This document shows, piece by piece, positions 16,826-30,104 of a stretch of 64,000 bases of DNA. The position numbers and the translations under genes were made by a program. The stretch spans positions 3,936,001-4,000,000 of the forward strand of contig OZ244744.1 in NCBI GenBank assembly GCA_965219455.1, written 5' to 3'. How positions within the stretch are numbered: the stretch's first letter is position 1; each line of letters starts with the position of its first letter. The notes beneath the pieces are model-generated. The model was not told the DNA's origin and ran no database searches. It saw nothing but the letters and a program-made list of their open reading frames with translations. This stretch comes from Candidatus Latescibacterota bacterium. Lineage in GTDB: Bacteria; Latescibacterota; UBA2968; GCA-2709665.

Positions 16826-17947
16826 TCATCGCCGTTTCCTGGTATACGCCAGTATTCCGTTAACGAGCCGCTCCGCGTTGCGCTCCCTGTCCTTATGATA
16901 CCGAATCTGATACGCGTCGTCTTTATCGTGGACGTTGTGGATCTCAACCAGAATCTCGGCGTGGGCCGAATTATTCCGAAGTACCCACAGGCTCCGCCCC
17001 TGAACCCGCGCGGGCACGTCCGGATGGTTCAGAGCCGAACGCATGATGCGGGCGAAAGTTCTGGAACGGCTGTCAACCTTGCCCCGCCGTTTCAGATAGA
17101 TCGCCAAGGGACCCCTGGAACGCCCGGGGTTGTTGTCCGCATGCAGTGAGACAAACAGACGCCTGCCCCTGCGCGCCCTTTTGAAGAACCGGTTCGCAAC
17201 CCGAACGCGCTGCGAGAGATTGGCGCTCCTGGGTCGCACCCGATCGGAATTTCTCCGGTTGTAACGTTCATCGTTATAGACTTCGTTCTTTTCGTGGACG
17301 AACGTAACCTTGGCCTCCACGTTATCCCGAATCAGATGATTGGGGCTAATCACCGTCAATGCCACTTCCGCGCCCAGAAGTCGAAGTTTCCTGTACATTC
17401 GCAGTGCAATATCGTAGACATATTCATCTTCGACGACGTAAACCCGCTTGTTCTGGCCCGTTATATTGGAAACGATCGCTCCCGGATCGATCCCCCCGTG
17501 CCCGGGGTCGAGCACAATACGCCAGCCCTTGAGCGGCTGCCGTCTCTTCCTGTGGGCCCGGGAGAGAATCTCGTTGTCAAAGGCGCGCAACAGGATCTGA
17601 GCGCGCCGATAGTCCAGACTCGGGGTGGAACGCGAGGCCTCCGAATAGTTCCGGTGCCTTTGCCTGGCCGCGGTTGGCTTTCGCCAGTAGTACGGACCGT
17701 TCTGCGCCTCATATTTGACAATTCTTGGACCCAGCCGCAGCACCTGCCCCGGATAGATGTTATTTGTGCGTAGCTTGTTGATTCGCTTGATCTCCCGGAT
17801 GCTTGTCTGGAACTGCCGGGCTATGGAATACAGAGTGTCGCCCTTCCGGACCTCGTAGTCCGGCGAGAGCGCGGCAAGGGGACTTGCGAACAGCATGACC
17901 AGGCAAAGCCCGGCAGTCAGCAGGCGCAAATGTCGATAGTTTTCCAT
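16826..17947 (-). CDS. N-acetylmuramoyl-L-alanine amidase (Amidase_3) with LysM domain
   Basis: Signal peptide; LysM YEVRKGDTLYSIAR...IYPGQVL; amidase motifs LDPGHGG, VEDE, SLHAD, LVE. Confidence 0.88.
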   Translation of the reverse strand: MENYRHLRLLTAGLCLVMLFASPLAALSPDYEVRKGDTLYSIARQFQTSIREIKRINKLRTNNIYPGQVLRLGPRIVKYEAQNGPYYWRKPTAARQRHRNYSEASRSTPSLDYRRAQILLRAFDNEILSRAHRKRRQPLKGWRIVLDPGHGGIDPGAIVSNITGQNKRVYVVEDEYVYDIALRMYRKLRLLGAEVALTVISPNHLIRDNVEAKVTFVHEKNEVYNDERYNRRNSDRVRPRSANLSQRVRVANRFFKRARRGRRLFVSLHADNNPGRSRGPLAIYLKRRGKVDSRSRTFARIMRSALNHPDVPARVQGRSLWVLRNNSAHAEILVEIHNVHDKDDAYQIRYHKDRERNAERLVNGILAYTRKRR

Positions 17948-18113
17948 AATTATCGTTCTACGCGGAAGCACCAATAGATCGGCGACCACACCTGTCACGC
18001 CCTCCTGAGAGAGCACTTCAGATATTACGCTATTTGTCTGCAAAAGACAAGTCGCCTCCGCCCGGGAACGAGGGGGCAACGACGGCCCGATCCGGTTGTT
18101 TTCGCCTCACGTA

Positions 18114-18128
18114 TGGTGTTATTCACCA
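18114..18128. promoter_or_regulatory. Palindromic upstream activator sequence (candidate PspF-type bEBP site)
   Basis: TGGTG-TTATT-CACCA about 90 bp upstream of the sigma54 box; a degenerate second site lies near 18093-18107. Confidence 0.55.
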
Positions 18129-18214
18129 ACAGTCGATGACAGCCCTGTCTCGTTGTACGGAATAAATTCAGTAAATACAGATACATAATCAAAGTGTGGT
18201 TTTTTTGTCATACG

Positions 18215-18228
18215 GGTACGGTTCTTGC
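18215..18228 (+). promoter_or_regulatory. Sigma54 (-24/-12) promoter of the pspA operon
   Basis: GGTACG-GTTC-TTGC has the exact GG-N10-GC spacing of TGGCACG-N4-TTGC. An AT-rich IHF-like tract (AATCAAAGTGTGG) lies just upstream. Confidence 0.75.
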
Positions 18229-18322
18229 CTCGTGTGGTCGGCAGAACGGTGGAGGAGAACCGGAAATCGGATTTTCTTAACATGGTGGCGTTCAGATGCC
18301 CACCTTAGAAGGGAGTACGACC

Positions 18323-19000
18323 ATGGCCAAAGGGGTTTTCTCCAGAATGGCGGACATTATCAAAGCCAACATCAACGATCTTCTGAATCGCGCCGAAGAT
18401 CCGGAAAAGATGATTCGGCAGATGATTCTCGAAATGGAAGAGGCCGTCAACAAGGCGACTGCGTCCGTCGGGACCGCCGTTGCCAACGAAAAACGCCTGG
18501 AGCGTCAGTTATTGGAAAAAACCGACCAGATCGAAGCCTGGCAGAAAAAGGCCGAACTGGCCGTGGAATCCGGCGAGGACGACCTTGCCAGGCGCGCGCT
18601 GGAACGAAAGGCCGCCCTCGAAAAGGCCGCCCGCGACCTGGAAATCGCTTTCGACGAGAGCCACAAGACCTCGGATCAGCTCAAGAAACAGCTGACGCAG
18701 CTCAAGTCCAAACTGGACGAAGCACGCACCAGCCAGGGCGCCCTCATCGCGCGCCGTCGCGCCGCGCAGGCGAGAAAGCAGATCGCCCAGGGCCTTTCGG
18801 GCATCGGCGATGACGCATTTTCCAGCTTCGAACGCTTCCGCAGCCGGGTCGAAAACGAAGAAGCAGAGGCGTCTGCTCACGCCGAAATTGCGGGTGAGGA
18901 TTCCTCGCTTGAAGACTCGTTCGAAAAACTGGAACGCCGGAACACCGTGGAAGAGGAACTTGAGGCCCTGAAAAACAAACTGCGTAAATCCGATGCGTGA
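18323..19000 (+). CDS. pspA: Phage shock protein A (PspA/IM30, ESCRT-III superfamily)
   Basis: GVFSRMADIIKANINDLLNRAEDPEKMIRQMILEMEE, GEDDLARRAL, VEEELEALK. Confidence 0.96.
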   Translation: MAKGVFSRMADIIKANINDLLNRAEDPEKMIRQMILEMEEAVNKATASVGTAVANEKRLERQLLEKTDQIEAWQKKAELAVESGEDDLARRALERKAALEKAARDLEIAFDESHKTSDQLKKQLTQLKSKLDEARTSQGALIARRRAAQARKQIAQGLSGIGDDAFSSFERFRSRVENEEAEASAHAEIAGEDSSLEDSFEKLERRNTVEEELEALKNKLRKSDA

Positions 19001-19634
19001 ATTGCGAAATATCCTGGACGAAATCGCTTACGAAATTGAAAAGGCGGTGCGCAACACAAAAGAGGCCTGGCGTGACGTCCGGAACACCCGACCCATTCGG
19101 CAAGGACCGCGAACGGTTCGTCACCCACGATCGGGTCGCTCGTCTTTCCGATTCTCCGATCTGGCCACTGACGGGAGCTGCGCCATGCGATACGCCCTCG
19201 CGTTCGTTCTGAAAGCCACAGCGATTTTGTTTGGACTCGGCGGCCTGATGGGCCCCGTGTTCTCCGGTTTCCAGCCGTCCGGCTTCCGCCTGGCCCCGCT
19301 CGATTTCAGCATGGGGCTTGTGGTTGTCGCCATCGCGCTGGTCTTCTGGCTGGCCGGGTGCAGGGTCCACGCGTCGGCCGAGCACAAGCGGTACGCGCAG
19401 TATCAACATCGGCTGCTCAGACTCGCTCGCGAGAAAGGCGGAAGCCTCACGGTTCTGGAGGCTGCTACCGACGGCAGCATGACCGTCGAAAAAGCGGCTG
19501 AAATCCTGGGCGATTTGGCCGTCGGCGGCAGCGCCGAGGTGCGCGTTTCCGAGTCCGGTCTTGTTGTCTATCACTTTCCTGAAGTTGAACGCGGGGCCGA
19601 AAAATACCGGGCGAAACCGGTGGATGACCTTTGA
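18993..19634 (+). CDS. Two-TM membrane protein with C-terminal winged-helix domain
   Basis: Overlaps the pspA stop; two hydrophobic segments, then LLRLAREKGGSLTVLEAA...KAAEILGDL...G...GLVVYHFP. Confidence 0.75.
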   Translation: MRELRNILDEIAYEIEKAVRNTKEAWRDVRNTRPIRQGPRTVRHPRSGRSSFRFSDLATDGSCAMRYALAFVLKATAILFGLGGLMGPVFSGFQPSGFRLAPLDFSMGLVVVAIALVFWLAGCRVHASAEHKRYAQYQHRLLRLAREKGGSLTVLEAATDGSMTVEKAAEILGDLAVGGSAEVRVSESGLVVYHFPEVERGAEKYRAKPVDDL

Positions 19635-19645
19635 TATCTTAAACA

Positions 19646-19829
19646 GTGTTCTGTCCCATAAATTTCTCACCATTCGGCCGCCGATTCATCCCGTCTCGCG
19701 GCGTTGCCTTCGCTCGCCGACCTTACGCAGGTCGCCTGCACTCTGGCGCTGGTTCCTGAGCCGGTCGAAGGATGCGAGCCGGGCGACTCGACTGCCGAAT
19801 TCTGGCAACCTATTTCTGGGACAGAACAC
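19646..19829. mobile_element. 184-bp MITE with 18-bp terminal inverted repeats (IS630-like ends)
   Basis: GTGTTCTGTCCCATAAAT (19646-19663) versus ATTTCTGGGACAGAACAC (19812-19829), 17/18 inverted match; no transposase; GC-rich hairpin-forming interior. Confidence 0.7.
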
Positions 19830-19844
19830 GGACGGAGGGATGTC

Positions 19845-20060
19845 ATGTTTGAAGTTGGCATTGGAATTGCGCTAATTGTTCTCGCGGCGGCGGTCCACAA
19901 ATATGTAGATCGGCAAACCAAAGGCTTCATGCCCGGCAAAGTGGAAGAGCGCCTGAATGTCCGGCTGGACGACCTTGACCGAAGACTGACGGATATCCAG
20001 GAAATCATGATCGCGATCGACGAAAAGCTGACTCGGCCGGGCTCGCGAGGGACCTCGTGA
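19845..20060 (+). CDS. Small single-TM coiled-coil protein (PspB-like)
   Basis: GGAGG RBS; MFEVGIGIALIVLAAAV TM followed by RLDDLDRRLTDIQEIMIAIDEKL coiled coil. Confidence 0.7.
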   Translation: MFEVGIGIALIVLAAAVHKYVDRQTKGFMPGKVEERLNVRLDDLDRRLTDIQEIMIAIDEKLTRPGSRGTS

Positions 20061-20153
20061 TCGGCGAACGCGCGGGCATTGGGGATCCGAGAGAAACCGG
20101 ATCGAGCAACTGCGCCCGGATCAAGCCTACTCAACAACAAGAGGCGTTGAACC

Positions 20154-20528
20154 ATGAACAAAAAGCGGATTCACGTCGGTGAGCGGATTCAGGATGGAGC
20201 GGTTATCGTCTCCGTGAGTGGCGATCCCATTGCACGGCCGGATGTAGCGCCCCTGCGACGCAAAATACGAAACCTGGTCAACGACGGCGCCAGGACGGTC
20301 GTGGTCGACCTTTCAAGGGTGAATCGACTCGGCGCCGCCTTGCTGGGGGAGTTGATCAGGGGTCTGACCACCATAAGAGACGTAGGCGGGGACCTGAAGC
20401 TGAGCGGCGTTTCGGGTCGGATCGAGAGAGTCCTCGCGGTAACGAGACTCTCACGCTTATTCAAGATTGCCTATGCGGGAACCGGTCCGCCGGACGCAGA
20501 CCACAGAACTGTTAAAAAGGTGGCTTGA
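20154..20528 (+). CDS. STAS-domain protein (anti-sigma antagonist-like)
   Basis: VIVSVSGD, VVVDLSRV, LGELI, GGDLKLSG, VLAVTRL; the canonical DSS/TG serine is absent. Confidence 0.85.
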   Translation: MNKKRIHVGERIQDGAVIVSVSGDPIARPDVAPLRRKIRNLVNDGARTVVVDLSRVNRLGAALLGELIRGLTTIRDVGGDLKLSGVSGRIERVLAVTRLSRLFKIAYAGTGPPDADHRTVKKVA

Positions 20529-20595
20529 GACTTCAGTGTATAGGAAATCCACTGCTTGATTTTCGAAACGCGGGGAATCCGGAGGAGGGAACGGA

Positions 20596-21180
20596 ATGAG
20601 CTGGATATTGGAAATGGCGTTAGCCTTATGCCTGTTGATGATTGCGGGTGGGTTTTCAGTCTATCTGATGACTCCCGGTAACAAAAAGCCGAGCGGATCC
20701 ACGGTGGGGATTTTCCTGGCTGTGGCGGCCGTGGGGTTCGTAATCTGGGCCTTAACGTCTGAACGGTGGAACTTGCTTCCAGGTACTGATAATATTCCTG
20801 AACTGACCGAAGCCGGCAGTGCCGGCGGCATGTCGGGCGAAGGCTTGAAGCTATTCCTGGACAATCAACGGCGATTGGAATCCGCTGCCAAAAAACTCGA
20901 AGGCATCGCGAACAGGCTCGAACTGGCTCAATCTGGAACGGGTCTGGGTATCGCAATGGAAATTGGCATCGGAATCTGTCTGATAATTTTTGCCGGGGGC
21001 CTCGTGAGCTATATACACCTCAGGAAAAAGAGGGAGGGCAAAGGGATGAGTCCCGACCGGGCGAGACGAATGGAAACGCGGCTCGACACAGTGGATCAGC
21101 GTTTAAATGAATTCCAGGACGTCCTGATATCCATTGACGACAGGCTGAACCGGTTGAAGGGAAACAAAGTCGCAGGTTGA
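20596..21180 (+). CDS. Three-TM membrane protein ending in a PspB-like module
   Basis: C-terminal MEIGIGICLIIFAGG...RLDTVDQRLNEFQDVLISIDDRL is paralogous to 19845..20060; GGAGG RBS. Confidence 0.75.
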   Translation: MSWILEMALALCLLMIAGGFSVYLMTPGNKKPSGSTVGIFLAVAAVGFVIWALTSERWNLLPGTDNIPELTEAGSAGGMSGEGLKLFLDNQRRLESAAKKLEGIANRLELAQSGTGLGIAMEIGIGICLIIFAGGLVSYIHLRKKREGKGMSPDRARRMETRLDTVDQRLNEFQDVLISIDDRLNRLKGNKVAG

Positions 21181-21303
21181 TCAGCATTGGGACCGGTTAA
21201 CGCCGGTGCAATCCAGCGTTGACGAGGGTTCCTGGTCTCTCGTGAAACTCAGGATAGGATCTTTCATTAAATAAAACACCCGAAAAACAGAAAGGACAGA
21301 GCC

Positions 21304-21480
21304 ATGCTCGCAAAGATTCTCGGTATCATACTCATTGCCATCGGCGCATACCTCGGTATTTTCGAAGCGATCAAGCTGATCGGCGTGTCCCTGGAAGTCC
21401 TGTTTCTGCTCCTGAAACTGCTGGTTTCGTTCGTCCTTATTTACGTGGGTTATCGGCTGCTTGCGAGTGACTCCAGGTAA
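21304..21480 (+). CDS. 58-aa two-TM membrane protein (not in ORF track)
   Basis: AAGGA RBS; MLAKILGIILIAIGAYLGIFEAIKLIGVSLEVLFLLLKLLVSFVLIYVGYRLLASDSR*; fills the gap before the ECF sigma. Confidence 0.75.
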   Translation: MLAKILGIILIAIGAYLGIFEAIKLIGVSLEVLFLLLKLLVSFVLIYVGYRLLASDSR

Positions 21481-21508
21481 TTGACCCTCCTTTCGAGAGG
21501 ATATCCCA

Positions 21509-22087
21509 TTGATGGAAAACGAACGGCATCTGGTCCGGAGGGCCGTCAAAGGTGACGCGGCTGCCTTCGGCATACTTTATAAGGCCTGCCATGAACAGAT
21601 CTACGCCACGATGGTGCGACGAACCAGCGATCCTGAAACCGCGCAGGATCTCGTGCAAACCGCCTTTTTAAGGGCATATACCGCCATGGGTTCCTACCGG
21701 GGAGAGGCTGCGTTTGCCACCTGGCTTACGCAAATCGCGCTGAACGTACATAGATCCCACTTCCGCAAACAGCAGGTGCGCCGGAGGTGGATAAAGGTAT
21801 CCGAAGACCCCGCGGCCCTTGCCGAAGCTACGCGCCTGCCCGCTTGCGGCGAAAATCCTGAGATTTCGACCCAGCGAAACCAGCACCGCGAACTCGTCAG
21901 GAAGAGTATTCGCGCATTGCCGGCCAGATATCGCAAGGTCGTCTGGATGCGTTACGTCCGGGACTGGACATACAAGGAGATTACCCGGGAGTTGCAGCTT
22001 CCAATGGGTACGGTCAAGACCTGGCTCAACCGTGGAAGGTACCAATTGAAGGGCGAATTCAGAAAACGGGGGTTGGACCCCTTCTGA
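21509..22087 (+). CDS. ECF-family RNA polymerase sigma factor
   Basis: GDAAAFGILY, AQDLVQTAFLRAY, FATWLTQIALN, LPARYR, YKEI...GTVKTWLNRGR. Start is 21509 (TTG) or 21512 (ATG). Confidence 0.93.
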   Translation: MMENERHLVRRAVKGDAAAFGILYKACHEQIYATMVRRTSDPETAQDLVQTAFLRAYTAMGSYRGEAAFATWLTQIALNVHRSHFRKQQVRRRWIKVSEDPAALAEATRLPACGENPEISTQRNQHRELVRKSIRALPARYRKVVWMRYVRDWTYKEITRELQLPMGTVKTWLNRGRYQLKGEFRKRGLDPF

Positions 22088-22347
22088 GATGGCGCGCCGC
22101 GGGGTTCCGGACGCGTAGAGTTGAGGGCCGGGTCGGTTCGGCGGTTGAGCTCACGCCAGGCTCGCGGGCGACTTCGCAGGTAGGGAACGACCCGGCGCCC
22201 GTCGTCATCGGCGAAACCCATCGCAATTTTGTGTTGACGTAAAGAATATTCTATATCACATTTCGCAGCGCGGCGCGCATGCCTGGCATGCGCCTGCCTC
22301 TTTCCCACTTACCGTGTGGTACGTGCAAAATCAAGCAGACCCGCAGA

Positions 22348-22968
22348 ATGGAGCCATATTTGGATGCCTGGTGGACGGATCTGACCACGCTCAACCAGAT
22401 TTTCTACGTCGTGGCGATTTTTTTCAGTGCGTTTTTCGTCTGGCAACTCCTGGTGGTTCTACTTGGTCTTGGAGACGGTTCGGATGCAGGCGTTTCCGGA
22501 GATACAAACCTCGGCGACGCCGGCCCGGAACTTAACGACGGACTGGAAGACGGTACGGTTGCTTCTTTCAAACTGCTATCCGTCAGGTCCCTGATCGCCT
22601 TCGGCATGCTGTTCGGGTGGGCGGGCGCCCTGTATCTGGAGAAAGGGTTGGATATTCAGACCGCCCTACTTTACGCGCTTGTCTGGGGCAGTGCGGGCAT
22701 GGCGGTCGTGGCCTATTTTTTCCGCGGAATCCGGCAGCTTACAGAGACTGGAAACGCCAGCCTGGATACATGCGTTGGTACGTCGGGCGAGGTATATTTG
22801 GATATCCCGGAAGGCGGCACCGGACAGGTCCGGGTGATGGAGAGCGGCGCCGTCGCCTACGTATCTGCCCGCGGAAAAAATGGCATGCCCATCTCAACCA
22901 ATACGCCGGTCCGCATTCTACGTGTGCTCGATCCAACCACGCTTGAGGTCGAGCCGTTGGTGTCCTGA
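22348..22968 (+). CDS. NfeD-like (YuaF/YqiJ-type) flotillin partner
   Basis: Three hydrophobic segments, then an OB-fold-like VGTSGEVYLDIP...GQVRV...VRIL; directly upstream of flotillin. Confidence 0.85.
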   Translation: MEPYLDAWWTDLTTLNQIFYVVAIFFSAFFVWQLLVVLLGLGDGSDAGVSGDTNLGDAGPELNDGLEDGTVASFKLLSVRSLIAFGMLFGWAGALYLEKGLDIQTALLYALVWGSAGMAVVAYFFRGIRQLTETGNASLDTCVGTSGEVYLDIPEGGTGQVRVMESGAVAYVSARGKNGMPISTNTPVRILRVLDPTTLEVEPLVS

Positions 22969-23120
22969 GTGGATTTTGGTTCAAATGTCTATGTTTCCAG
23001 TATTTCCTAATTGTCTGATTGCGCCGATGGATGAGACAGGAAGGGTTTTCAACCCGCACGGGATTCGCTCCGGGATAGATCTCAATCAGAGGTGAAATAT
23101 CCAATTGAGGAGGGATTGCA

Positions 23121-24635
23121 ATGGCAACTGAGACGATACTGACAATTATAATGCTGTTAGTGGTATTTCTGCTCTTCGTGACGTTTATTTCCAGGTACAG
23201 GCGGTGTCCATCCAACAAGATACTGGTCGTCTACGGCAAGACCGGACAGGGGGCGGCAAAATGCGTTCACGGGGGCGCTGCCTTCGTTCTTCCGCTCCTT
23301 CAGGACTATGAGTATCTGGACCTGGAGCCGTTTGTCGTTCCCATAGACCTGGACAACGCCCTTTCACAGGAGAACATCCGCGTGTCCGTTCCGACAACCG
23401 TCACGGCGGCGGTTTCAAATCAGGCGGGCGTGATGCAGAATGCGGCAGTTCGTCTCCTGGGTCTTTCACGCGAACAAATCGAGAGTCAGGCGCAGGACAT
23501 CATCCTCGGTCAGATGCGGGCGGTGATAGCCACCATGGAAATCGAAGAAATCAACCGGGACCGGCAGGCTTTCATGTTCAAGGTTAATGAAGCAGTCTCC
23601 ACCGAAATGGAGAAAATCGGCCTGGCCGTGATTAACGTGAACATCAAGGATATTGAAGACGAAAGCGGTTATATCAAGGCTCTCGGGCAAAAGGCCGCGG
23701 CCGAAGCTATCAACCAGGCGACCATCGACGTGGCCGAGCAGGAGAAGACGGGCAAGGTGGGTGTGGCCGAGCGGGAACGGGACCAGCGCACCGACGTGGC
23801 TGCTGCGCATGCGGCCGCCGACATCGGCGAGGCCGAAGCCGCCAGGGACCGGCGCCAAAGGGTTGCCGCCCTCGAATCCGAAGCCCAGATCGGCGAGGCC
23901 GAGGCCACGAGAAACAAACGCCAGATGGTCTCTACTCTGGAAGCGGAAGCGGTCCAGGCCGAGGCCGGGGCCGAGGCAAAAAAGGCCGGTTATATGGCAC
24001 AGCAGACGGTGTCCGAGGAGGTCGCGCGGCAAAAGGGGCAGGAGGCGGCGAAGGCAGCGGACGGCGCCATCCGGGTTGCCCAGGAACGGGCTGAGAAAGA
24101 AGCCGAGGATGCCCGGGCGCTGCGCGAAGTAGCGCGACTGAGAGCGGAAATCGTCGTACAGGCCGATGCGCAAAAGCAGAAGCTGGTCGTACAGGCGGAG
24201 GCCGAGAAGGAGCAGAGGACACTTGTGGCGCAGGGGGAAGCTGCTGCCATTTTGGCACAGAAGCAAGCCGAAGCCGAGGGCACTCAGGCCATCCTGGACG
24301 CCAAGGCGGAGGGCTACAAGGAGTTGGTGGCCGCATGCGGAGGAAACGACCAGGCTGCCGCAGCCTTCCTCATCGTGGAACGGCTGACCGAGGTCGCAGG
24401 TATCCAGGCCGAAGCCATCAAGAATCTGCCCCTGGAGAAGATCATGGTGTGGGATGGTGGCAACGGACAGGGTGGTATGTCCAACCTCGGCCAGCGGCTG
24501 ATGGGCGCCATTCCTCCGATGCACGAACTGGCAAAGTTGGCGGGCCTGGAACTGCCGGAGTTTTTGGGCCGCTTGGCCGGCCAGACCGATCCGACGAGCG
24601 CCGCTGTAGACAAACCGGAAACGCCATCGGAATAG
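23121..24635 (+). CDS. Flotillin (SPFH/band 7) family protein
   Basis: RYRRCPSNKILVVYG, GGAAFVLP, ALSQENIRV, GQMRAVIATMEIEEINRDR, Ala/Glu-rich coiled coil, KIMVWDGG. Confidence 0.95.
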   Translation: MATETILTIIMLLVVFLLFVTFISRYRRCPSNKILVVYGKTGQGAAKCVHGGAAFVLPLLQDYEYLDLEPFVVPIDLDNALSQENIRVSVPTTVTAAVSNQAGVMQNAAVRLLGLSREQIESQAQDIILGQMRAVIATMEIEEINRDRQAFMFKVNEAVSTEMEKIGLAVINVNIKDIEDESGYIKALGQKAAAEAINQATIDVAEQEKTGKVGVAERERDQRTDVAAAHAAADIGEAEAARDRRQRVAALESEAQIGEAEATRNKRQMVSTLEAEAVQAEAGAEAKKAGYMAQQTVSEEVARQKGQEAAKAADGAIRVAQERAEKEAEDARALREVARLRAEIVVQADAQKQKLVVQAEAEKEQRTLVAQGEAAAILAQKQAEAEGTQAILDAKAEGYKELVAACGGNDQAAAAFLIVERLTEVAGIQAEAIKNLPLEKIMVWDGGNGQGGMSNLGQRLMGAIPPMHELAKLAGLELPEFLGRLAGQTDPTSAAVDKPETPSE

Positions 24636-24659
24636 TCACGCTTCATCAGGAGTCACGGA

Positions 24660-26288
24660 TTGAAAAGACCCGCAATACCGGACAACGGGCCGGACGCTGC
24701 CAACCACATCGGTATCGCTCAGTCCCTGCCTGAATCCGAGCATGCCGAAGCCCGGCGGTGCTGCCGCGACGGCGATACCTCGATGGAAACCGGCGACCTG
24801 GCGAAAGCCGAGGCCGCCTACCGGGCGGCGTTATCCGCCGACGTCGAGAATATGCGGGCGCGCCACAATCTGGGTGTTGTCTACTACAGGCAGGGCAACT
24901 GGCGGGACGCGCTGACCTGCTTTACGCGCTGCCTTGCTCGTGCGCCGGAACACGGTGCGGGCTTGTATTTCAATGTAGGCCTCTGCCGGCTAAAAGGGGG
25001 CGTTAACGGAGCTTTGCAGGCCTTTGAAGCCGCCACCGCAGGTAATCCGGACCATCTTGAGGCGCAATTTCAGTTGGCGCTTTTGCAGGCCGAAGGCGTG
25101 GATTCGGGATCGAACGGCCGGCAACGAGCCGTTGAAGCGCTTCGCTACATTCTCGAGGCCGTGGACCGGGGCGTGCCATTCGCCAATGTAGACGGTACCT
25201 GCTTCTTGCTCGCCAGCTTTCTCGACGACCTTCCGGACAACATCGATGAAGCCATCCTGGTCTATCGCCGAGGGTTGGAAGCGAATCCGCTGTTCGCCCC
25301 AGGCCATAACAACCTTGGCGTTCTGCTCATGGAAACGGGTCAGACCCTCCAGGCCCTTGGCGCATTCAAGATAGCCATCCAGCTCGAGCCGGACTATGAG
25401 CTACCCTACAGAAACCTGGCGCACCTTCTTTTTGATCACAAGAATTCGGCACAGATGGAACAGGAATACACTTCCATTATTGAGGAATTCGGCGCAAAGG
25501 CAGCCTCGGTCCTGGCACGCTTATCCCTTGAACTCATCGACCTGGGACGTGTGCAGGTGGGAGAGAGCCTGTATACGCGGGGTCACCAGATCAAGAACCT
25601 GATGGGTCTGGTCGGGAGCCGTACGCGCCGGCTTATTCGAAGGGTCCCGCAGAAAGACACCGTTCTCGACGATCTGAGAAACATCGCCCGCGACCAGGAA
25701 CACATTTACGACCAATGGGTCGCCTATCTGCGCAGCATGAAACAGGATCCGCTGAACCCCTCTCTGGTGGATATTCCGCAACTCGTGGGCAAAATCAAGG
25801 AGACGATCTCGACCCGGACCGGCGGCGCAGCGCTCCGCTTTGCATCTGAACCGCAGGTTCCCCAGGTCAAGGTCGATCCCGGCATGCTGCGTGAAGCCGT
25901 CACCAATCTGATTCTCAACGCGCTTGACGCCGTAGATGAGGATGGAGCGGTCACGGTTCAGGCAGGCTACGACAACAAGCGGGCGTCGGTCTTCATCGAA
26001 GTGGAAGACAACGGACCCGGCATATCCGAAGCCATTCAGGCCAGGATCTTCGATCCCGGATTTTCCACCAAGGAAAAAGGCAATGGCTTCGGCCTCAGCA
26101 TCTGTTCCCGCATTGTATCCGCCCATAGGGGAAGCCTGCGCATGATCAGCCGTCCGGGCGCCGGCGCCGTGTTCCGCATCGACCTTCCGGTGGACTTCGA
26201 ACTTGCCTCCGGACCCGAAAGTATCGGCTGGAGTGGCGATCCGATATCTACCTCGCGGCTGCCGCTGGCCGAAGAATTCATCGAGTAA
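24660..26288 (+). CDS. Cytoplasmic TPR-domain sensor histidine kinase
   Basis: N-terminal TPRs (HNLGVVYY, HNNLGVLL); H-box GHQIKN, N-box NLILNALDA, DNGPGI, IFDPGFSTK, GNGFGL; no TM segment; AGGAG RBS before TTG. Confidence 0.9.
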   Translation: MKRPAIPDNGPDAANHIGIAQSLPESEHAEARRCCRDGDTSMETGDLAKAEAAYRAALSADVENMRARHNLGVVYYRQGNWRDALTCFTRCLARAPEHGAGLYFNVGLCRLKGGVNGALQAFEAATAGNPDHLEAQFQLALLQAEGVDSGSNGRQRAVEALRYILEAVDRGVPFANVDGTCFLLASFLDDLPDNIDEAILVYRRGLEANPLFAPGHNNLGVLLMETGQTLQALGAFKIAIQLEPDYELPYRNLAHLLFDHKNSAQMEQEYTSIIEEFGAKAASVLARLSLELIDLGRVQVGESLYTRGHQIKNLMGLVGSRTRRLIRRVPQKDTVLDDLRNIARDQEHIYDQWVAYLRSMKQDPLNPSLVDIPQLVGKIKETISTRTGGAALRFASEPQVPQVKVDPGMLREAVTNLILNALDAVDEDGAVTVQAGYDNKRASVFIEVEDNGPGISEAIQARIFDPGFSTKEKGNGFGLSICSRIVSAHRGSLRMISRPGAGAVFRIDLPVDFELASGPESIGWSGDPISTSRLPLAEEFIE

Positions 26289-26292
26289 CCTT

Positions 26293-27699
26293 ATGAGTGC
26301 CCAGATCGTTATTGCGGATGACCAGCCCGAAATTCTGGACATGCTCACGCGAAGCCTGCAGGTGGATGGCCGGATCGTGAGGGCCTTTCCGACGGGAAAG
26401 AAGGCCTTTGCATACCTGCGAGAGCACATTTCGGACGTTGACATGGCCATTCTGGATATCGATTTCGGCCCGGCCGAGCCGGACGGTCTGAAAATCCTGC
26501 GGCAGATTCGCGCCCTTGTGCCCGCCTTGCCCGTTATCATCCTTACGGGCAAGGGCACCGTGGAGAACGCAGTAGCCGCCCTGCGCATGGGTGCCTCCGA
26601 CTTTATCGAAAAAGATTTCTATATTGAGGACCGGCTCGAACTCAGCCTGGAAAAACTCGACCGGGTACTTGCCGTCCTTAAGGAGAATGCCCGGCTTCAT
26701 GCCCGGGTAAAGGATCTGGACCGCGAGAATCGTTTCTACCGGGACGAGTTCGGGAAAAAGTACAGGCCGATCAACGCCAGCCCCCAGATGCTGCGGATTA
26801 TGCAGCAGGCCGAGCGTATCGCTTCCATCCCCCGGCCGGTTCTTGTTCTCGGCGAACCCGGCACCGGAAAGGAACTCGTGGCCGCTGCGATCCACTACGG
26901 CGGGGTACGGAGAGATCGTCCTTTCGTTAAAGTCAACTGCGCCGCCCTCTCCGCCAACCTGCTCGAAAGCGAACTTTTCGGCTACGAAAAAGGGGCCTTC
27001 ACCGGAGCTACCGAAGCCCGACCCGGTCGTTTTGAAGCGGCCAACGGCGGTACGCTGTTACTCGACGAAATTGGCAACACCACACCGGAATTCCAGCAGA
27101 ACGTCCTGCGTGCCATCGAATACCAGGAGATTCAACGGGTGGGCGGAGCCACGCCCACCCGCGTGGACGTACGAATCATTGCCGCCACGAATGCCGATCT
27201 TGAACGTGAGATCATCGACGGGCGTTTTCGTCAGGACCTCTTCGACCGCCTGCGCTTTGAAATTATCCGCGTTCCCCCTCTTCGCGACCGGCGTGAAGAT
27301 ATCCAGCCGCTTGCCGGATTTTTCGTTGAACAGATCGTCCGGGAGGTCCCGGGACTCAAGGTCCGTCCGTTTTCGGAAAGCGCCCTCCGCCACCTGTTGG
27401 GCTACCCGTGGCCGGGAAACGTGCGCGAGCTCAAATTCGCCGCCGAACGCGCCACGTGCATGGCAACGGGCGCATCCATCGAAACCCGGGACCTGCCGCC
27501 CGAAATCTCCAGCGGGGCTCCGGCGGCATCGGGAGACGGTTTCGACGCTCAGGTCACGGCCTTTGAACTCGGATTGCTAAGGAGCGCGCTGAGCCGAACG
27601 AACTGGAACCAGCGCAAGGCGGCCGAATCGCTCAGTTTGAGCTACGATCAGTTTCGTCACTTTTACCGAAAGTTCGGACTTGCCAAAGAAAGGTCCTGA
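26293..27699 (+). CDS. Sigma54-dependent response regulator (receiver + PspF-like AAA+ + HTH)
   Basis: Receiver motifs ADD...ILD...LTG...FIEK; GEPGTGKE, GAFTGA, LLDEIG, ATNADL, DLFDRLRF, WPGNVREL; HTH NQRKAAESLSLSYDQFR. Confidence 0.93.
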   Translation: MSAQIVIADDQPEILDMLTRSLQVDGRIVRAFPTGKKAFAYLREHISDVDMAILDIDFGPAEPDGLKILRQIRALVPALPVIILTGKGTVENAVAALRMGASDFIEKDFYIEDRLELSLEKLDRVLAVLKENARLHARVKDLDRENRFYRDEFGKKYRPINASPQMLRIMQQAERIASIPRPVLVLGEPGTGKELVAAAIHYGGVRRDRPFVKVNCAALSANLLESELFGYEKGAFTGATEARPGRFEAANGGTLLLDEIGNTTPEFQQNVLRAIEYQEIQRVGGATPTRVDVRIIAATNADLEREIIDGRFRQDLFDRLRFEIIRVPPLRDRREDIQPLAGFFVEQIVREVPGLKVRPFSESALRHLLGYPWPGNVRELKFAAERATCMATGASIETRDLPPEISSGAPAASGDGFDAQVTAFELGLLRSALSRTNWNQRKAAESLSLSYDQFRHFYRKFGLAKERS

Positions 27700-27729
27700 C
27701 ACGCGTTCTTCATATTAGGAGACCGGAAG

Positions 27730-28518
27730 ATGAATATTGTCGTATTCGGCGCGGCTGGCTGGCTCGGACGGGCGGCGCTGGCCGCTTTGGAGAAAAACCA
27801 TCGGATCCGGGCGTTCGACTTCGGCCCGAAGGCGTGGCGCGCCTGGCAGGACACCGAAGGTGAATGGACGGGCGGCGACGTCGTCCACGGAGATATCGTG
27901 GATTTTGAAGCCGTACACCGTGCCACGGAGGGTATGGACGCCGTTCTGCACATGGCGGTGTACCACTCGAACGATCCGGGCGCCCACGGCGTAGACGACG
28001 TTAAACCCTTCCTCGTCAACGTCAAGGGCCTCTGGAACGTACTGGAATCCGCCCGCCGCCACGGCATCGGGAGGATCGTGCATCTCGGCTCCTGTCAGAC
28101 CGCCCATCCCAGGGGCATCTTCTTCACGGCCGACGTCAGGCGGCCCGACGGCGGCCTTTACGGCGTCACGAAACGCCTTCAGGAAGAAATGTGCCGGCAG
28201 TTCCACGACGCGTTCGGCCTCCGCATTATTGTGCTGCGGCCGGACTACATTGTTGACAGCCGACTCGGTATCGGTCGGTACAAGGAAAAACTTGGTACGG
28301 AAGATCGGCCCTACCGCCAGGGCTGGGTGTGCCGCCACGACCTTGCGGAAGCCTGTCGCCTGAGCCTGGAATCCCAATCCATTGATTTCGACGTTTTCCA
28401 TATCGTGGGAACGCCGGGGGCCGACAGAACCTGCAACGTCGCACGGTCCCGAGAAATACTCGGCCTGGAATACCGGGGAAATCTCGAACAATACCGGACT
28501 GACGCCAGCGTTGAATAG
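27730..28518 (+). CDS. NAD-dependent epimerase/dehydratase (extended SDR)
   Basis: GAAGWLG Rossmann motif, NVKG, YGVTK catalytic YxxxK. Confidence 0.9.
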   Translation: MNIVVFGAAGWLGRAALAALEKNHRIRAFDFGPKAWRAWQDTEGEWTGGDVVHGDIVDFEAVHRATEGMDAVLHMAVYHSNDPGAHGVDDVKPFLVNVKGLWNVLESARRHGIGRIVHLGSCQTAHPRGIFFTADVRRPDGGLYGVTKRLQEEMCRQFHDAFGLRIIVLRPDYIVDSRLGIGRYKEKLGTEDRPYRQGWVCRHDLAEACRLSLESQSIDFDVFHIVGTPGADRTCNVARSREILGLEYRGNLEQYRTDASVE

Positions 28519-28555
28519 AAATAAAACGTGATTTGAAATTCCGGAGGTGGTCCCA

Positions 28556-28981
28556 ATGTCATCCAGGAAAAACGCGCGAATTGCCCGGGAGTCCCTCGAA
28601 GCCGCATTTGCCTCGGACTGGAAACGCCTTCGGGAAACTTACGCCGACGACGCGACCATGGTTGGCGGCGGACTTGACATCCGCGGCGCAGATAACATGG
28701 TGGCGCTCTGGCGGGGCTGCCACGAGGAAGAGCGGGGCCTGCGGCTCGAGATTCTCAACGTTGTCGCCGACGGCGACATGGTCGCTGTGGAGTTTCGCCA
28801 TAAGGGTATTGTAAACCAACCCCTTCCCGGACTGCCCGAAGCGTTATATGGCAAACGGCTCGAAGCGACCGAAGTGCACCTGTGCCGGTTTCGCAACGAC
28901 AAGATTACCGCCGTGACAATCTACGGCGGCGTCTGCGAATCTCCCGACGTCGCGCTGAGACGGGTCTGGGTGGCTGAATAG
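28556..28981 (+). CDS. SnoaL-like / NTF2-family protein
   Basis: YADDA, IRGAD, VVADGDMVAVE, RFRNDKI; GGAGG RBS. Confidence 0.8.
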   Translation: MSSRKNARIARESLEAAFASDWKRLRETYADDATMVGGGLDIRGADNMVALWRGCHEEERGLRLEILNVVADGDMVAVEFRHKGIVNQPLPGLPEALYGKRLEATEVHLCRFRNDKITAVTIYGGVCESPDVALRRVWVAE

Positions 28982-28994
28982 GGAAACCGCTTGT

Positions 28995-30104
28995 ATGCCC
29001 TACCAACAGATCGACCACCGCCATGTCGTCCTCAGACCCCTGGCGGACCGACAAAGCAAATTCTCGGTCGACGAGATCATGGTCGACCCGGACACGCCCG
29101 CTCCCGACCCCGGATTGTCGGCGGACAGGCTCAGGCGCGTTGCTGAGGAAATTCACCGTGCCAGGCGGCGGGGTGCTTCCGTTATGCTGGCCTACGGCGC
29201 GCATCTGGTCAAAAACGGCCTGGGACCCGTTGTGGTCCGCATGATGGAGGCAGGTTGGATCACCCATCTGGCCACCAACGGAGCCGGCACGATTCACGAC
29301 TGGGAATACGCCTTTCAGGGGCGCTCTGAAGAAGACGTTCGGGCAAACGTCGCAGAGGGGTGTTTCGGAACCTGGGAGGAAACGGGTCGCTACATTCATC
29401 TGGCCGTTCTCACCGGCGCGTTGACGGGCATGGGTTACGGAGAATCCCTCGGAAAATTCATCTCCGACAACGGTTGCGACATCCCCGCCCGAAGCGACCT
29501 GGCATCCGCCCTGCGCCGGTGGGCCCACGCCCCCACGGATTCGCCGTCCATGCCGGCGTACGCCGAACTGCTTCACGTCGTCTCACGATTTGACATTCCT
29601 TCCGGCCGCTGCCGGGTAGAACACCCGTTTAAGGAGACTTCCCTTACGGCCCAGGCATACCGTCTCGGAGTTGCGCTTACAGTACATCCGGGCATCGGTT
29701 ACGACATCATCCACAACCACCACCTCGCCAACGGCGCGGCCATCGGTCGAGGCGCGGATATCGACTTTCGGGTGTTCACGCGGGGTGTCGTTGATCTGGA
29801 TGGAGGCGTGTTTCTTTCAATAGGTTCGGCCGTCATGGCGCCGCAGGTCTTTGAAAAAGCCCTTTCGCTGGCCAACAATCTTCGAATACAGGGAAACATG
29901 CGGGTTGTGCGCCCGTTCATTGTTGTCAACGACCTTTCGCCGATGACCTGGGATTGGTCCAGGGGCGAACCGCCGAAAGAAAATCCGGCGTACTATCTCA
30001 GATTTTGCAAGTCATTCAGCCGAATGGGAGGAGAAATGGTATACGTCGACAGCGACAACCGGATCTTTCTGCACAATCTCTATCACATTCTAAAGGGGAT
30101 GTAG
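28995..30104 (+). CDS. Deoxyhypusine-synthase-fold hypothetical protein (GSU2086-like)
   Basis: GAHLVKNGL, LATNGAGTIHDWE, EDV...GCFG.WEETG, HPGIGYDIIH, IGSAVMAPQVFEKA. Confidence 0.6.
   Translation: MPYQQIDHRHVVLRPLADRQSKFSVDEIMVDPDTPAPDPGLSADRLRRVAEEIHRARRRGASVMLAYGAHLVKNGLGPVVVRMMEAGWITHLATNGAGTIHDWEYAFQGRSEEDVRANVAEGCFGTWEETGRYIHLAVLTGALTGMGYGESLGKFISDNGCDIPARSDLASALRRWAHAPTDSPSMPAYAELLHVVSRFDIPSGRCRVEHPFKETSLTAQAYRLGVALTVHPGIGYDIIHNHHLANGAAIGRGADIDFRVFTRGVVDLDGGVFLSIGSAVMAPQVFEKALSLANNLRIQGNMRVVRPFIVVNDLSPMTWDWSRGEPPKENPAYYLRFCKSFSRMGGEMVYVDSDNRIFLHNLYHILKGM

Follow-up and report, generated by a model that had tools for sequence, protein, structure and literature searches.

Organization of the Locus

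The window, by which we mean the whole 64,000-nucleotide stretch of DNA analyzed (contig OZ244744.1, positions 3,936,001 to 4,000,000, of a Candidatus Latescibacterota bacterium), is part of a complete, 5.84-Mb genome and holds a real, conserved PspA membrane-stress cluster, which is a new wiring of known parts and not a new kind of machine. The open reading frames (ORFs) of the window include eleven genes between 18.0 and 27.7 kb, all in the same orientation on the plus strand; an earlier note on this DNA, made from the letters alone, had already listed all eleven at or near the positions reported here.

The array opens with pspA (18320-19000), whose 226 amino acid product belongs to the PspA/IM30 family (Pfam PF04012, 1.1e-47), followed by g02 (18993-19634; 213 amino acids), which has an N-terminal helix, two transmembrane (TM) helices, and a C-terminal winged-helix domain, and g03 (19845-20060; 71 amino acids), with one TM helix and a conserved cytoplasmic helix. 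It closes with g10 (24660-26288), a soluble histidine kinase of 542 amino acids with tetratricopeptide (TPR) repeats, the H-box GHQIKN, and a HATPase_c domain (2e-23), and g11 (26293-27699), an NtrC-type response regulator with a receiver (REC) domain, an AAA+ domain with the GAFTGA motif, and a Fis-type helix-turn-helix (HTH). Between these ends lie g04 (20154-20528), a single-domain STAS protein of 124 amino acids; g05 (20596-21180; 194 amino acids), which has three TM helices and whose C-terminal module is a paralogue of g03; g06 (21304-21480), a 58 amino acid peptide with two TM segments (2TM) located 28 nt upstream of g07 (21509-22087), which encodes a sigma factor of the extracytoplasmic function (ECF) type of 192 amino acids; g08 (22348-22968), an NfeD-like protein of ~206 amino acids with three TM helices and a C-terminal beta domain; and g09 (23121-24635), a flotillin-type SPFH protein of 504 amino acids with an N-terminal TM segment. 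Hydropathy gave two membrane segments in g02, one in g03, three in g05, two in g06, three in g08, and one in the flotillin, and none in PspA, the STAS protein, the ECF sigma factor, the kinase, or the activator. No Pfam family passed its threshold for g02, g03, g05, g06, or g08.

Conservation of Gene Order and a Five-Gene Core

Two sets of loci were compared with the window: 20 loci from 20 of the 40 relatives having a g02 match, and 47 related Latescibacterota loci found independently in species-representative genomes. In what follows, f1 and f2 are the two families of the taxonomic order to which the window belongs, and f4 is a third family. The gene order PspA-g02-(g03)-ECF-(NfeD-flotillin)-kinase-activator is kept in all 20 loci of the first set, with g03 present in 19 and NfeD-flotillin in 17, and the 47 f1/f2 loci of the second set show the same order wherever the contig is long enough. 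The neighborhood comparison by which the earlier note had proposed to check its reading thus came out in favor of a kept order. Identity of pspA to its relatives is 72-95%. The ECF gene is found in 46 of the 46 f1/f2 sources that reach it, and the kinase in 45 of 45 as well as in 9/9 f4 loci, whereas the NfeD and flotillin pair is present in 36 of the 45 f1/f2 sources that extend to the kinase and in 0/9 f4 loci.

In the f4 family, nine of the ten fetched loci consist of PspA-g02-g03-kinase-activator and nothing else of the cluster (the ECF sigma factor is likewise found in 0/9); the tenth, L113, has a weak g02 match and none of the cluster genes. Because these nine loci hold those genes and no other cluster member, the core conserved over three families is five genes: PspA, g02, g03, the TPR kinase, and the REC-AAA+-HTH activator. 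The g06-ECF pair, and then the NfeD-flotillin pair, are later insertions between g03 and the kinase in the order of the window. The STAS gene (6/20 loci of the first set, all told the genus of the window plus one close locus) and g05, a fused g03 paralogue of which full-length copies are limited to L057 and some members of the genus, are accessory and confined to this genus and its close kin. A tblastn match to g06 was obtained in 22/47 loci, and inspection of the other f1/f2 loci showed that in most of them the ECF gene is immediately preceded by a comparable 2TM frame.

Searched with its profile, the g02 family occurs in 103/168 Latescibacterota genomes: 20/21 in f1, 30/31 in f2, 52/76 in f4, and 0/39 in ten other families of the phylum. 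Spacing within the array is also largely kept. The pspA-g02 overlap of 8 nt recurs in 45/48 f1/f2 sources; most loci having the pair leave ~22-25 nt between the flotillin and kinase genes, and several leave more (up to ~460 nt); and the kinase-activator gap, 4 nt in the window, is 3-25 nt in most loci and exceeds 200 nt in four.

Three further co-oriented genes (27730-30104), coding for an NAD-dependent epimerase, a SnoaL-like protein, and a deoxyhypusine-synthase-like protein, begin 30 nt after the activator, and no terminator-like site was seen in that 30-nt gap. They are kept mainly inside the genus, with some present in three other f1 loci, and for that reason were not counted as part of the system.

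The Sigma-54 Promoter and Its Upstream Palindromes

A -24/-12 element of the sigma-54 type, GGGTACGGTTCTTGCC, lies on the plus strand at 18214-18229, 106 nt ahead of the ATG of pspA, with GG at 18215-18216 and GC at 18227-18228. Scanning the 330 nt upstream of pspA with the pattern NGG[CT]A[CT]N5[CT]TGCN gave exactly one match in 47 of 48 f1/f2 sources; the 48th (L079) breaks off at the end of its contig. The pattern was also found in 9/9 f4 loci, mostly as a near-perfect TGGCAC-N5-TTGCA. Overall, the element is present in 56/56 testable loci, always 61-108 nt before the pspA ATG, and this conservation upholds the sigma-54 promoter that had been proposed from the window by itself. The background of the pattern was 147 other matches in 915,779 nt on both strands, mostly fixed sites within coding sequence, and no second conserved sigma-54 element was found ahead of any other cluster gene in the same loci. 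The genome has one copy of rpoN.

Two tandem 15-bp palindromes of the form TGG-N9-CCA occupy 18093-18128 on the plus strand and are a candidate enhancer, i.e., upstream activating sites (UAS), for a bEBP (bacterial enhancer-binding protein). Site 1 (18093-18107) is degenerate in the window, site 2 (18114-18128) reads TGGTG-N5-CACCA, and their centers are 21 bp apart. Among the loci, palindromes of the form TGG(Y)N-N5-N(R)CCA lie ~90-115 nt upstream of the -24 element; the block is conserved in the upstream alignments of f1 and f2, and the f4 version is TGGCG-N5-CGCCA. A match 40-170 nt upstream of the -24 element occurs in 42/56 loci and two matches in 13/56, spaced by ~21 bp where two are present, against an expectation of 0.048 per 130 nt. 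The region upstream of pspA is, genome-wide, the only intergenic one to combine a sigma-54-like element with the UAS pattern. A second such candidate, at window position 49150, was discarded: it lies inside a 901 amino acid ORF on the other strand, and about four chance co-occurrences are expected. At the level of motifs, then, the sigma-54 promoter and upstream activator sites that precede pspA in classical Psp systems appear to be present here (56/56 and 42/56, respectively), and the enhancer is probably bound by g11.

A further conserved block, at 18022-18050 on the minus strand, contains on inspection a weak TTGTCT-17-TAATAT promoter that faces a divergent LysM-amidase gene (16826-17947; probable start MENYRHL), and the AAAAGACAAG core of this block is kept in f1 and f2. 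It seems to fit the amidase gene rather than the psp unit. A P-type ATPase gene and the amidase gene are constant upstream neighbors in f1/f2 and not in f4.

The Kinase and the Activator

The TPR histidine kinase and the bEBP with a REC domain that the earlier note had put at the end of the cluster both have the domains claimed, although the start of the bEBP gene had to be moved from 26203 to 26293. The best NCBIfam matches of the kinase are AtoS and ZraS, both under cut-off, and its H-box is NtrB-like. In Pfam, g11 matches Response_reg (9e-20), Sigma54_activat (4e-62), and AAA_lid_14, and it reaches 20.0 bits with HTH_8 against a cut-off of 22. The residues of the REC domain are readable in the translation: DD, the D in AILDID, T, and K. 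The features of an NtrC-family two-component pair are thus all at hand, namely the REC pocket with its aspartate, the AAA+ domain with GAFTGA, the Fis-type HTH, and an adjacent kinase with an H-box.

The same regulator had been called a two-component PspF, and this name does not hold. PspF of the classical systems has no N-terminal regulatory domain and presents a W56 surface; W56 is needed for control by PspA in E. coli. In contrast, g11 has the REC domain, has R at the W56 position, lies co-directionally at the 3' end of the array, and scores under the cut-off of the PspF model TIGR02974. It is best classed as an NtrC-type response regulator and not as PspF.

This bears on whether the switch could nevertheless work as it does in E. 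coli, with PspA holding the AAA+ domain of g11 inactive until membrane stress frees it, the REC domain and the kinase being a second, unrelated input. There is some resemblance to build on: the AAA+ and HTH regions of g11 share 44% identity with E. coli PspF, TIGR02974 is its top NCBIfam model by E-value, and PspA is autoregulated in the classical system, as passages of PMC9239133 describe. The TIGR02974 score is, however, only 339.8 against a cut-off of 443.55, about equal to the AtoC and NtrC scores, and the arginine at the W56 position is a further difficulty. In addition, the regulator is 3', co-directional, and always right behind the kinase in three families, which argues for phosphorylation as the main control. 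We consider an E. coli-like switch very unlikely.

PspA and Its Membrane Partners

PspA itself, the effector of classical Psp systems, is recognized here by its PF04012 domain; with TIGR02977 it scores 178 bits, under the equivalog cut-off. Three PspA paralogues are present in the genome. One (L114, G000:C1:2945568-2946248) belongs to a classical CesT_Tir_1-PspA-DUF4178 unit next to a spermine synthase gene that is transcribed divergently, and another (L115, G000:C1:1486139-1486804) is an orphan with no recognizable partners; the former type of context is described in sections of Ravi et al. 2024 (PMC11237479).

The description of g02 in the earlier note as a TM-winged-helix protein is borne out by its TM segments and by structure prediction. 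The AlphaFold model (predicted local distance difference test, pLDDT, 64 overall and 70-80 in the C-terminal domain) begins with a helix, continues with two long TM helices, and has a domain of beta-alpha-alpha-beta-beta build. Nearly all of the top Foldseek matches listed are winged-helix proteins (IclR, ArsR, MarR, TFE, and one ESCRT-II chain), with weak E values of 0.01-0.05, and relatives of g02 give sub-threshold matches to MarR_2, HTH_IclR, and HTH_24. The ESCRT-II chain, 3cuq_A, superimposes with a root-mean-square deviation of 1.6 over 56 columns (E 0.023), but it is one among many generic winged-helix matches, and g02 is single-domain, whereas the ESCRT-II-type partners bind an ESCRT-III subunit with winged-helix domains in tandem. 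A profile of g02 yielded chance-level rows only (E >= 0.44) against PDB sequences. The close family comprises 161 protein clusters, of which the best 120 have no Pfam domain and are named "hypothetical" where named, and a full HMMER search extended it to 1113 representatives at E<=1e-3. Many members of this wider family are ~150 amino acid proteins that combine a pair of TM helices with a winged helix and carry an EK..A motif at the C-terminus; in some there is a fusion to an RDD or TMEM43 membrane domain (proteins P0249-P0387).

The winged helix raises the question of whether g02 is a partner of PspA at all. It could be a membrane-tethered DNA-binding regulator, or an adaptor of the sigma/anti-sigma kind, DNA or the ECF sigma factor being the target of its winged helix; the structural matches listed are, after all, nearly all DNA-binding regulators, the sub-threshold matches of the relatives point the same way, and on two metagenome contigs (L116 and L117; 2.4-2.6 kb) the wider family occurs as tandem paralogues with no PspA visible, although two short contigs are too few to judge by. 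Yet g02 is coupled to pspA in f4, where the ECF sigma factor is absent, and the 8-nt overlap with pspA has been retained almost throughout f1/f2. Moreover, no conserved intergenic motif is left over once the sigma-54 element, the palindromes of the bEBP type, and the promoter of the divergent amidase gene have been assigned. On balance, a regulatory role in place of a PspA-directed one seems distinctly unlikely. A complex prediction for PspA with the g02 winged helix returned a score of 0.00, with controls not run, and says nothing on binding.

The next protein, g03, has a conserved helix motif, RRLTDIQD..I.IDEKL, in alignment and is often tandem-duplicated or fused, as in g05; g05 and g03 give mutual tblastn matches and align together. 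Both had been called PspB-like. PF06667 (PspB) has no match anywhere in the genome at E<=10, alignment of the g03 profile with E. coli PspB by hhalign gave a probability of 5.7%, and g03 has no Pfam match, so the label is unsupported for g03, which would be a PspB analogue by architecture only; for g05 the fusion is real, with a g03-type module, and the PspB identity is likewise unsupported. Relatives of g03 form 353 protein clusters, the best 120 of which have no Pfam domain. In an Atlas look-up, all named rows were below 0.9, and a similarity of 0.78 to a cluster with PspB on 14% of its members is a lead only. As to PspC (PF04024), nothing in the genome scored above cut-off, the best match (E 0.4) being elsewhere, in agreement with the earlier note, which saw no recognizable PspC. 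The PspB and PspC membrane sensors of classical Psp systems are therefore lacking by these searches.

The ORF first taken for g03 was 118 amino acids long; its true length is ~71, and the N-terminal extension is read-through from an element resembling a miniature inverted-repeat transposable element (MITE). This repeat (19645-19829, ~185 nt, with terminal inverted repeats) fills the g02-g03 spacer, a gap of 3-30 nt in most relatives, and short contigs of multiple origins pile up at it; it is not part of the system. Its ends are GTGTTCTGTCCCA ... TGGGACAGAACAC, and blastn found 148 further matches in the genome. Similar g03 extensions in L047 and L049 suggest an element at the same site in two relatives.

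STAS, ECF Sigma Factor, NfeD, and Flotillin

The STAS gene of the earlier note is present (STAS_2, 1.8e-10; TIGR00377 at 7e-12 is under cut-off), and no partner kinase for the STAS protein was found by Pfam in the cluster. Its ECF sigma factor and 58 amino acid TM protein are likewise as described, the latter being a 2TM peptide. Regions 2 and 4 that define ECF sigma factors are found in g07 (Sigma70_r2 5e-15, r4_2 3e-14), which scores 105.7 bits with TIGR02937 against a cut-off of 42.9; its best equivalog models, SigW and RpoE, are all under cut-off. No anti-sigma domain was detected by Pfam in any neighbor of the ECF gene among the cluster proteins, g06 included. The position of the ECF gene behind a sigma-54 promoter suggests that it may be controlled at the level of transcription.

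The NfeD assignment of g08 stands in part. Topology and position fit this family, whose NfeD domain, an OB-fold, follows TM helices and whose genes directly precede an SPFH gene, with the true start at ~22348, but the match to Pfam NfeD (PF01957) is sub-threshold (E 0.052), as it is for 12/15 orthologues, the best of which reaches 0.011. In the structural model, which is of low confidence (pLDDT 43-62 in the C-terminal domain), there are three TM helices and the C-terminus is rich in beta structure, and nothing was found with the g08 profile against PDB sequences. Among the f1/f2 loci g08 is always paired with g09, directly upstream of it. Given matches that are all sub-threshold, g08 is best read as a probable YqiJ/YuaF-type NfeD-like partner of the flotillin. 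The flotillin itself is as the earlier note had it: Band_7 matches at 1e-26 and the architecture is FloT-like over the full length, with an N-terminal anchor (TM segment at residues 5-23), the Band_7 domain, and a coiled-coil region. The FloT model NF058507 aligns over residues 8-485 with 144.6 bits against a cut-off of 700.

Regulation of the flotillin by the ECF sigma factor had been proposed as the last step of a cascade, and the comparison does not favor it. No ECF-type promoter was recognized in the ECF-nfeD gap; in addition, part of the clade lacks the ECF gene, and part lacks the NfeD-flotillin pair. More generally, inspection by eye for an AAC-N16-17-CGT-like promoter upstream of nfeD or of g06/ECF revealed no constant-spacing motif across clades, although such inspection does not exclude a promoter of this kind.

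RNA-seq libraries labelled sponge metagenome contain short contigs without differences to the window on nfeD, the flotillin, kinase, and activator genes, and the downstream genes (22523-28500), from which it follows that this organism or a very close strain was in those samples. One 776-nt contig from an RNA library spans the flotillin-kinase junction, which is weak evidence as it shows neither strand nor a single transcript and could be DNA carry-over. None of these contigs covered pspA or g02, which says nothing by itself, since such contigs reveal neither transcript starts nor levels.

Relation to Known Systems

Compared with pspF-pspABCDE of E. coli and Yersinia, the locus is alike in having pspA first behind a sigma-54 promoter with upstream activator sites, small membrane proteins after pspA, and an activator whose AAA+ and Fis-type HTH regions resemble those of PspF. 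It differs in its activator, which carries a REC domain, has a soluble TPR kinase as its cognate partner, and lies at the 3' end of the operon, whereas PspF is divergently upstream; in addition, PspB and PspC are lacking by Pfam, W56 is not conserved, and the partners g02 and g03 are of unrelated families. The Lia system of Firmicutes (liaIHGFSR) is similar in that a PspA homologue depends on a dedicated two-component system in the same cluster. According to the relevant passages of PMC11237479, however, LiaS is membrane-bound and LiaR is a REC-HTH protein (there called REC-wHTH) that acts at a sigma-70-type promoter, whereas the kinase here is soluble and the regulator is a bEBP. Pfam detected no LiaI, LiaF, or Toastrack domain in the eleven proteins, and the suggestion in the earlier note that the locus merges all three known regulatory logics is not supported, there being no LiaRS-type module.

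The closest parallels to the effector side are in B. subtilis, where pspA-ydjGHI, under the ECF factor sigma-W, encodes two membrane proteins and an SPFH protein needed to bring PspA to the membrane (sections of PMC8581546). Both that operon (samGHI) and yuaF-floT recall the present locus, in which PspA is likewise accompanied by a pair of membrane proteins and by an SPFH protein, a gene of the NfeD type is directly upstream of a FloT-type gene, and there is a tie to an ECF sigma factor (PMC8581546, in the same sections). In contrast to the sigma-W operons, the operon here encodes its own ECF sigma factor, which is in turn placed behind a sigma-54 promoter; an RsiW-like anti-sigma factor is lacking, and no ECF-type promoter was recognized upstream of pspA or nfeD; none of the searches run showed homology of the membrane partners to YdjG/H.

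Surveys have found related neighborhoods. Popp et al. 2022 (PMC9239133) reported PspA adjoining band-7/FloT and NfeD proteins and HTH regulators in Acidobacteriota, and in the passages concerned considered PspF difficult to assign beyond the enterobacteria. Ravi et al. 2024 (PMC11237479) described, in the sections at hand, PspA with band-7/flotillin and YqiJ/YuaF, variants of PspF that contain ACT/PAS domains, and two-component operons of the REC-HTH kind, with PspF and two-component systems lying outside the detailed analysis. The operons in those passages share with ours a co-directional PspA, NfeD/YqiJ-like 3TM protein, and flotillin with a transcription regulator alongside, but they are built around a dyad of CesT/Tir and PspA, around a giant AAA+ protein, or around HTH regulators; the same passages make no mention of sigma-54/REC-bEBP control, a TPR kinase, an ECF sigma factor, or a g02/g03-type partner, and the supplementary tables may list such an architecture. 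Neither "Latescibacter" nor "ECF" occurs in the main text of PMC9239133 or PMC11237479. A full-text literature search found no paper linking Latescibacteria with phage shock, and for the combination of ECF, PspA, sigma-54, bEBP, and flotillin it found only an E. coli sigma-54 mapping paper. The earlier claim of an undescribed Psp architecture consequently holds for the regulatory wiring and the g02/g03 partners and not for the PspA-flotillin-NfeD linkage, which is already published (in the passages of PMC9239133 and PMC11237479 cited above).

An ECF gene under a switched promoter also has precedents. HrpL is an ECF sigma factor without an anti-sigma factor, encoded behind a sigma-54 promoter that is switched by a bEBP, and in Streptomyces coelicolor sigE, which likewise encodes an ECF sigma factor without an anti-sigma factor, is switched by the envelope-stress-sensing two-component system CseBC. 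In both cascades, as proposed here, the ECF gene is behind a bEBP- or two-component-switched promoter; unlike hrpL and sigE, it would here be an internal gene of a PspA operon and not the sole target, a cascade suggested by position only. HrpRS acts at the hrpL promoter of Pseudomonas syringae (as stated in part of PMC3105312), and the Desulfovibrio psp activator is a single-component bEBP (part of PMC4641369).

Proposed Mechanism

We think it likely that the locus is a self-contained, positively autoregulated envelope- or membrane-stress operon of the PspA (ESCRT-III superfamily) type that is run by a phosphorelay. A single sigma-54 promoter and its two upstream palindromic enhancer sites would drive pspA and the genes that follow, and the last two genes would be the switch: the cytoplasmic TPR kinase would phosphorylate the REC-AAA+-HTH activator, which would then bind the enhancer and fire the promoter. 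Because the kinase is without a membrane segment, the membrane signal would have to reach it by protein contacts, most likely with PspA and/or g02 and g03; g02 is probably translationally coupled to pspA, and g02 and g03 stand where PspB/PspC, LiaI, or PspM stand elsewhere. In the order of the window, the same transcript would also make an ECF sigma factor with no recognizable anti-sigma factor, widening the response to a second set of genes, and in most genomes it would also make the NfeD-flotillin pair, which may act with PspA on the membrane.

Several observations weigh against this reading. Taken alone, the -24/-12 element of the window is not significant (85 matches at <=3 mismatches vs 88 expected) and deviates at three consensus positions, so the case for a promoter is made by its conservation and not by the single match. 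The genome has 12-13 bEBPs (13 Sigma54_activat matches), and with so many to choose from, the pairing of g11 with the enhancer is drawn from co-conservation only; covariation of the recognition helix with the half-sites was tried as evidence and rejected, as the HTH differs between f1/f2 and f4, yet the half-sites vary inside clades. One f1 genome, G016, has no g02 match at all, and in G015 (L091/L032; ~10001-10177 of L091) its frame is cut to 69 amino acids, the winged-helix part only, in a cluster that still has PspA, g03, ECF, NfeD, flotillin, kinase, and activator. To these may be added the PspA-free contigs of the wider g02 family already mentioned and, finally, the ECF-nfeD gap of 190-280 nt in the genus of the window, which contains a conserved TTGAC-type, -35-like block; there could thus be an internal promoter, with the array divided into two or more transcription units.

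Pressed further, this last point would make the locus at least two independent units, with sigma-54 driving pspA-g02-g03 and perhaps the genes as far as ECF, nfeD-flotillin-kinase-activator expressed constitutively from an internal sigma-70-type promoter, and the ECF and NfeD-flotillin genes being passengers without a functional tie to PspA. Blocks similar to the TTGAC[AG]-type block of the genus occur in other clades, an autoregulated switch must obtain its basal expression from somewhere, and the core persists where either the ECF gene or the NfeD-flotillin pair is missing. The putative internal promoters have poor -10 parts, however, and in several loci without NfeD-flotillin the gap between the ECF and kinase genes is only 2-97 nt. 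The insertions also took place at one site, between g03 and the kinase, and were then retained over whole families, and PspA recurs with SPFH/NfeD partners in other phyla and is functionally tied to them in B. subtilis (parts of PMC9239133, PMC11237479, and PMC8581546). We regard such a division as unlikely and retain the single, phosphorelay-controlled operon as the preferred interpretation.

Within that interpretation one may speculate further, at long odds, on what g02 does. It could be a membrane-anchored winged-helix adaptor that docks or nucleates PspA, much as ESCRT-II does for ESCRT-III, and that together with g03 reports PspA occupancy to the TPR kinase. Feedback would then run through the phosphorelay and not through sequestration of PspF by PspA, with the nested ECF sigma factor as a second tier.

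Significance

PspA and Vipp1 are bacterial relatives of ESCRT-III that seal damaged membranes. To our knowledge, the switching of PspA is understood in detail only for enterobacteria, in which PspF is held by PspA, and for Firmicutes, with LiaRS and sigma-W. The effector side of the present cluster, PspA-flotillin-NfeD, is a known theme; the papers searched yielded no instance of control by a dedicated TPR kinase and REC-bEBP, of an ECF sigma factor within the operon, or of the g02/g03 partners. Judged from the genomes compared, this regulatory wiring and these partners are conserved at the class level in an uncultured phylum. The locus would thus show a third conserved solution, a sigma-54 promoter with a dedicated cytoplasmic TPR kinase and a response-regulator bEBP, and it may give a first functional context to unannotated proteins, two unnamed families of membrane partners being tightly coupled to pspA. 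The additions of the ECF sigma factor and of NfeD-flotillin are steps that can be traced across families, and the compact set of about five genes offers a means of asking how a soluble kinase may read membrane damage.

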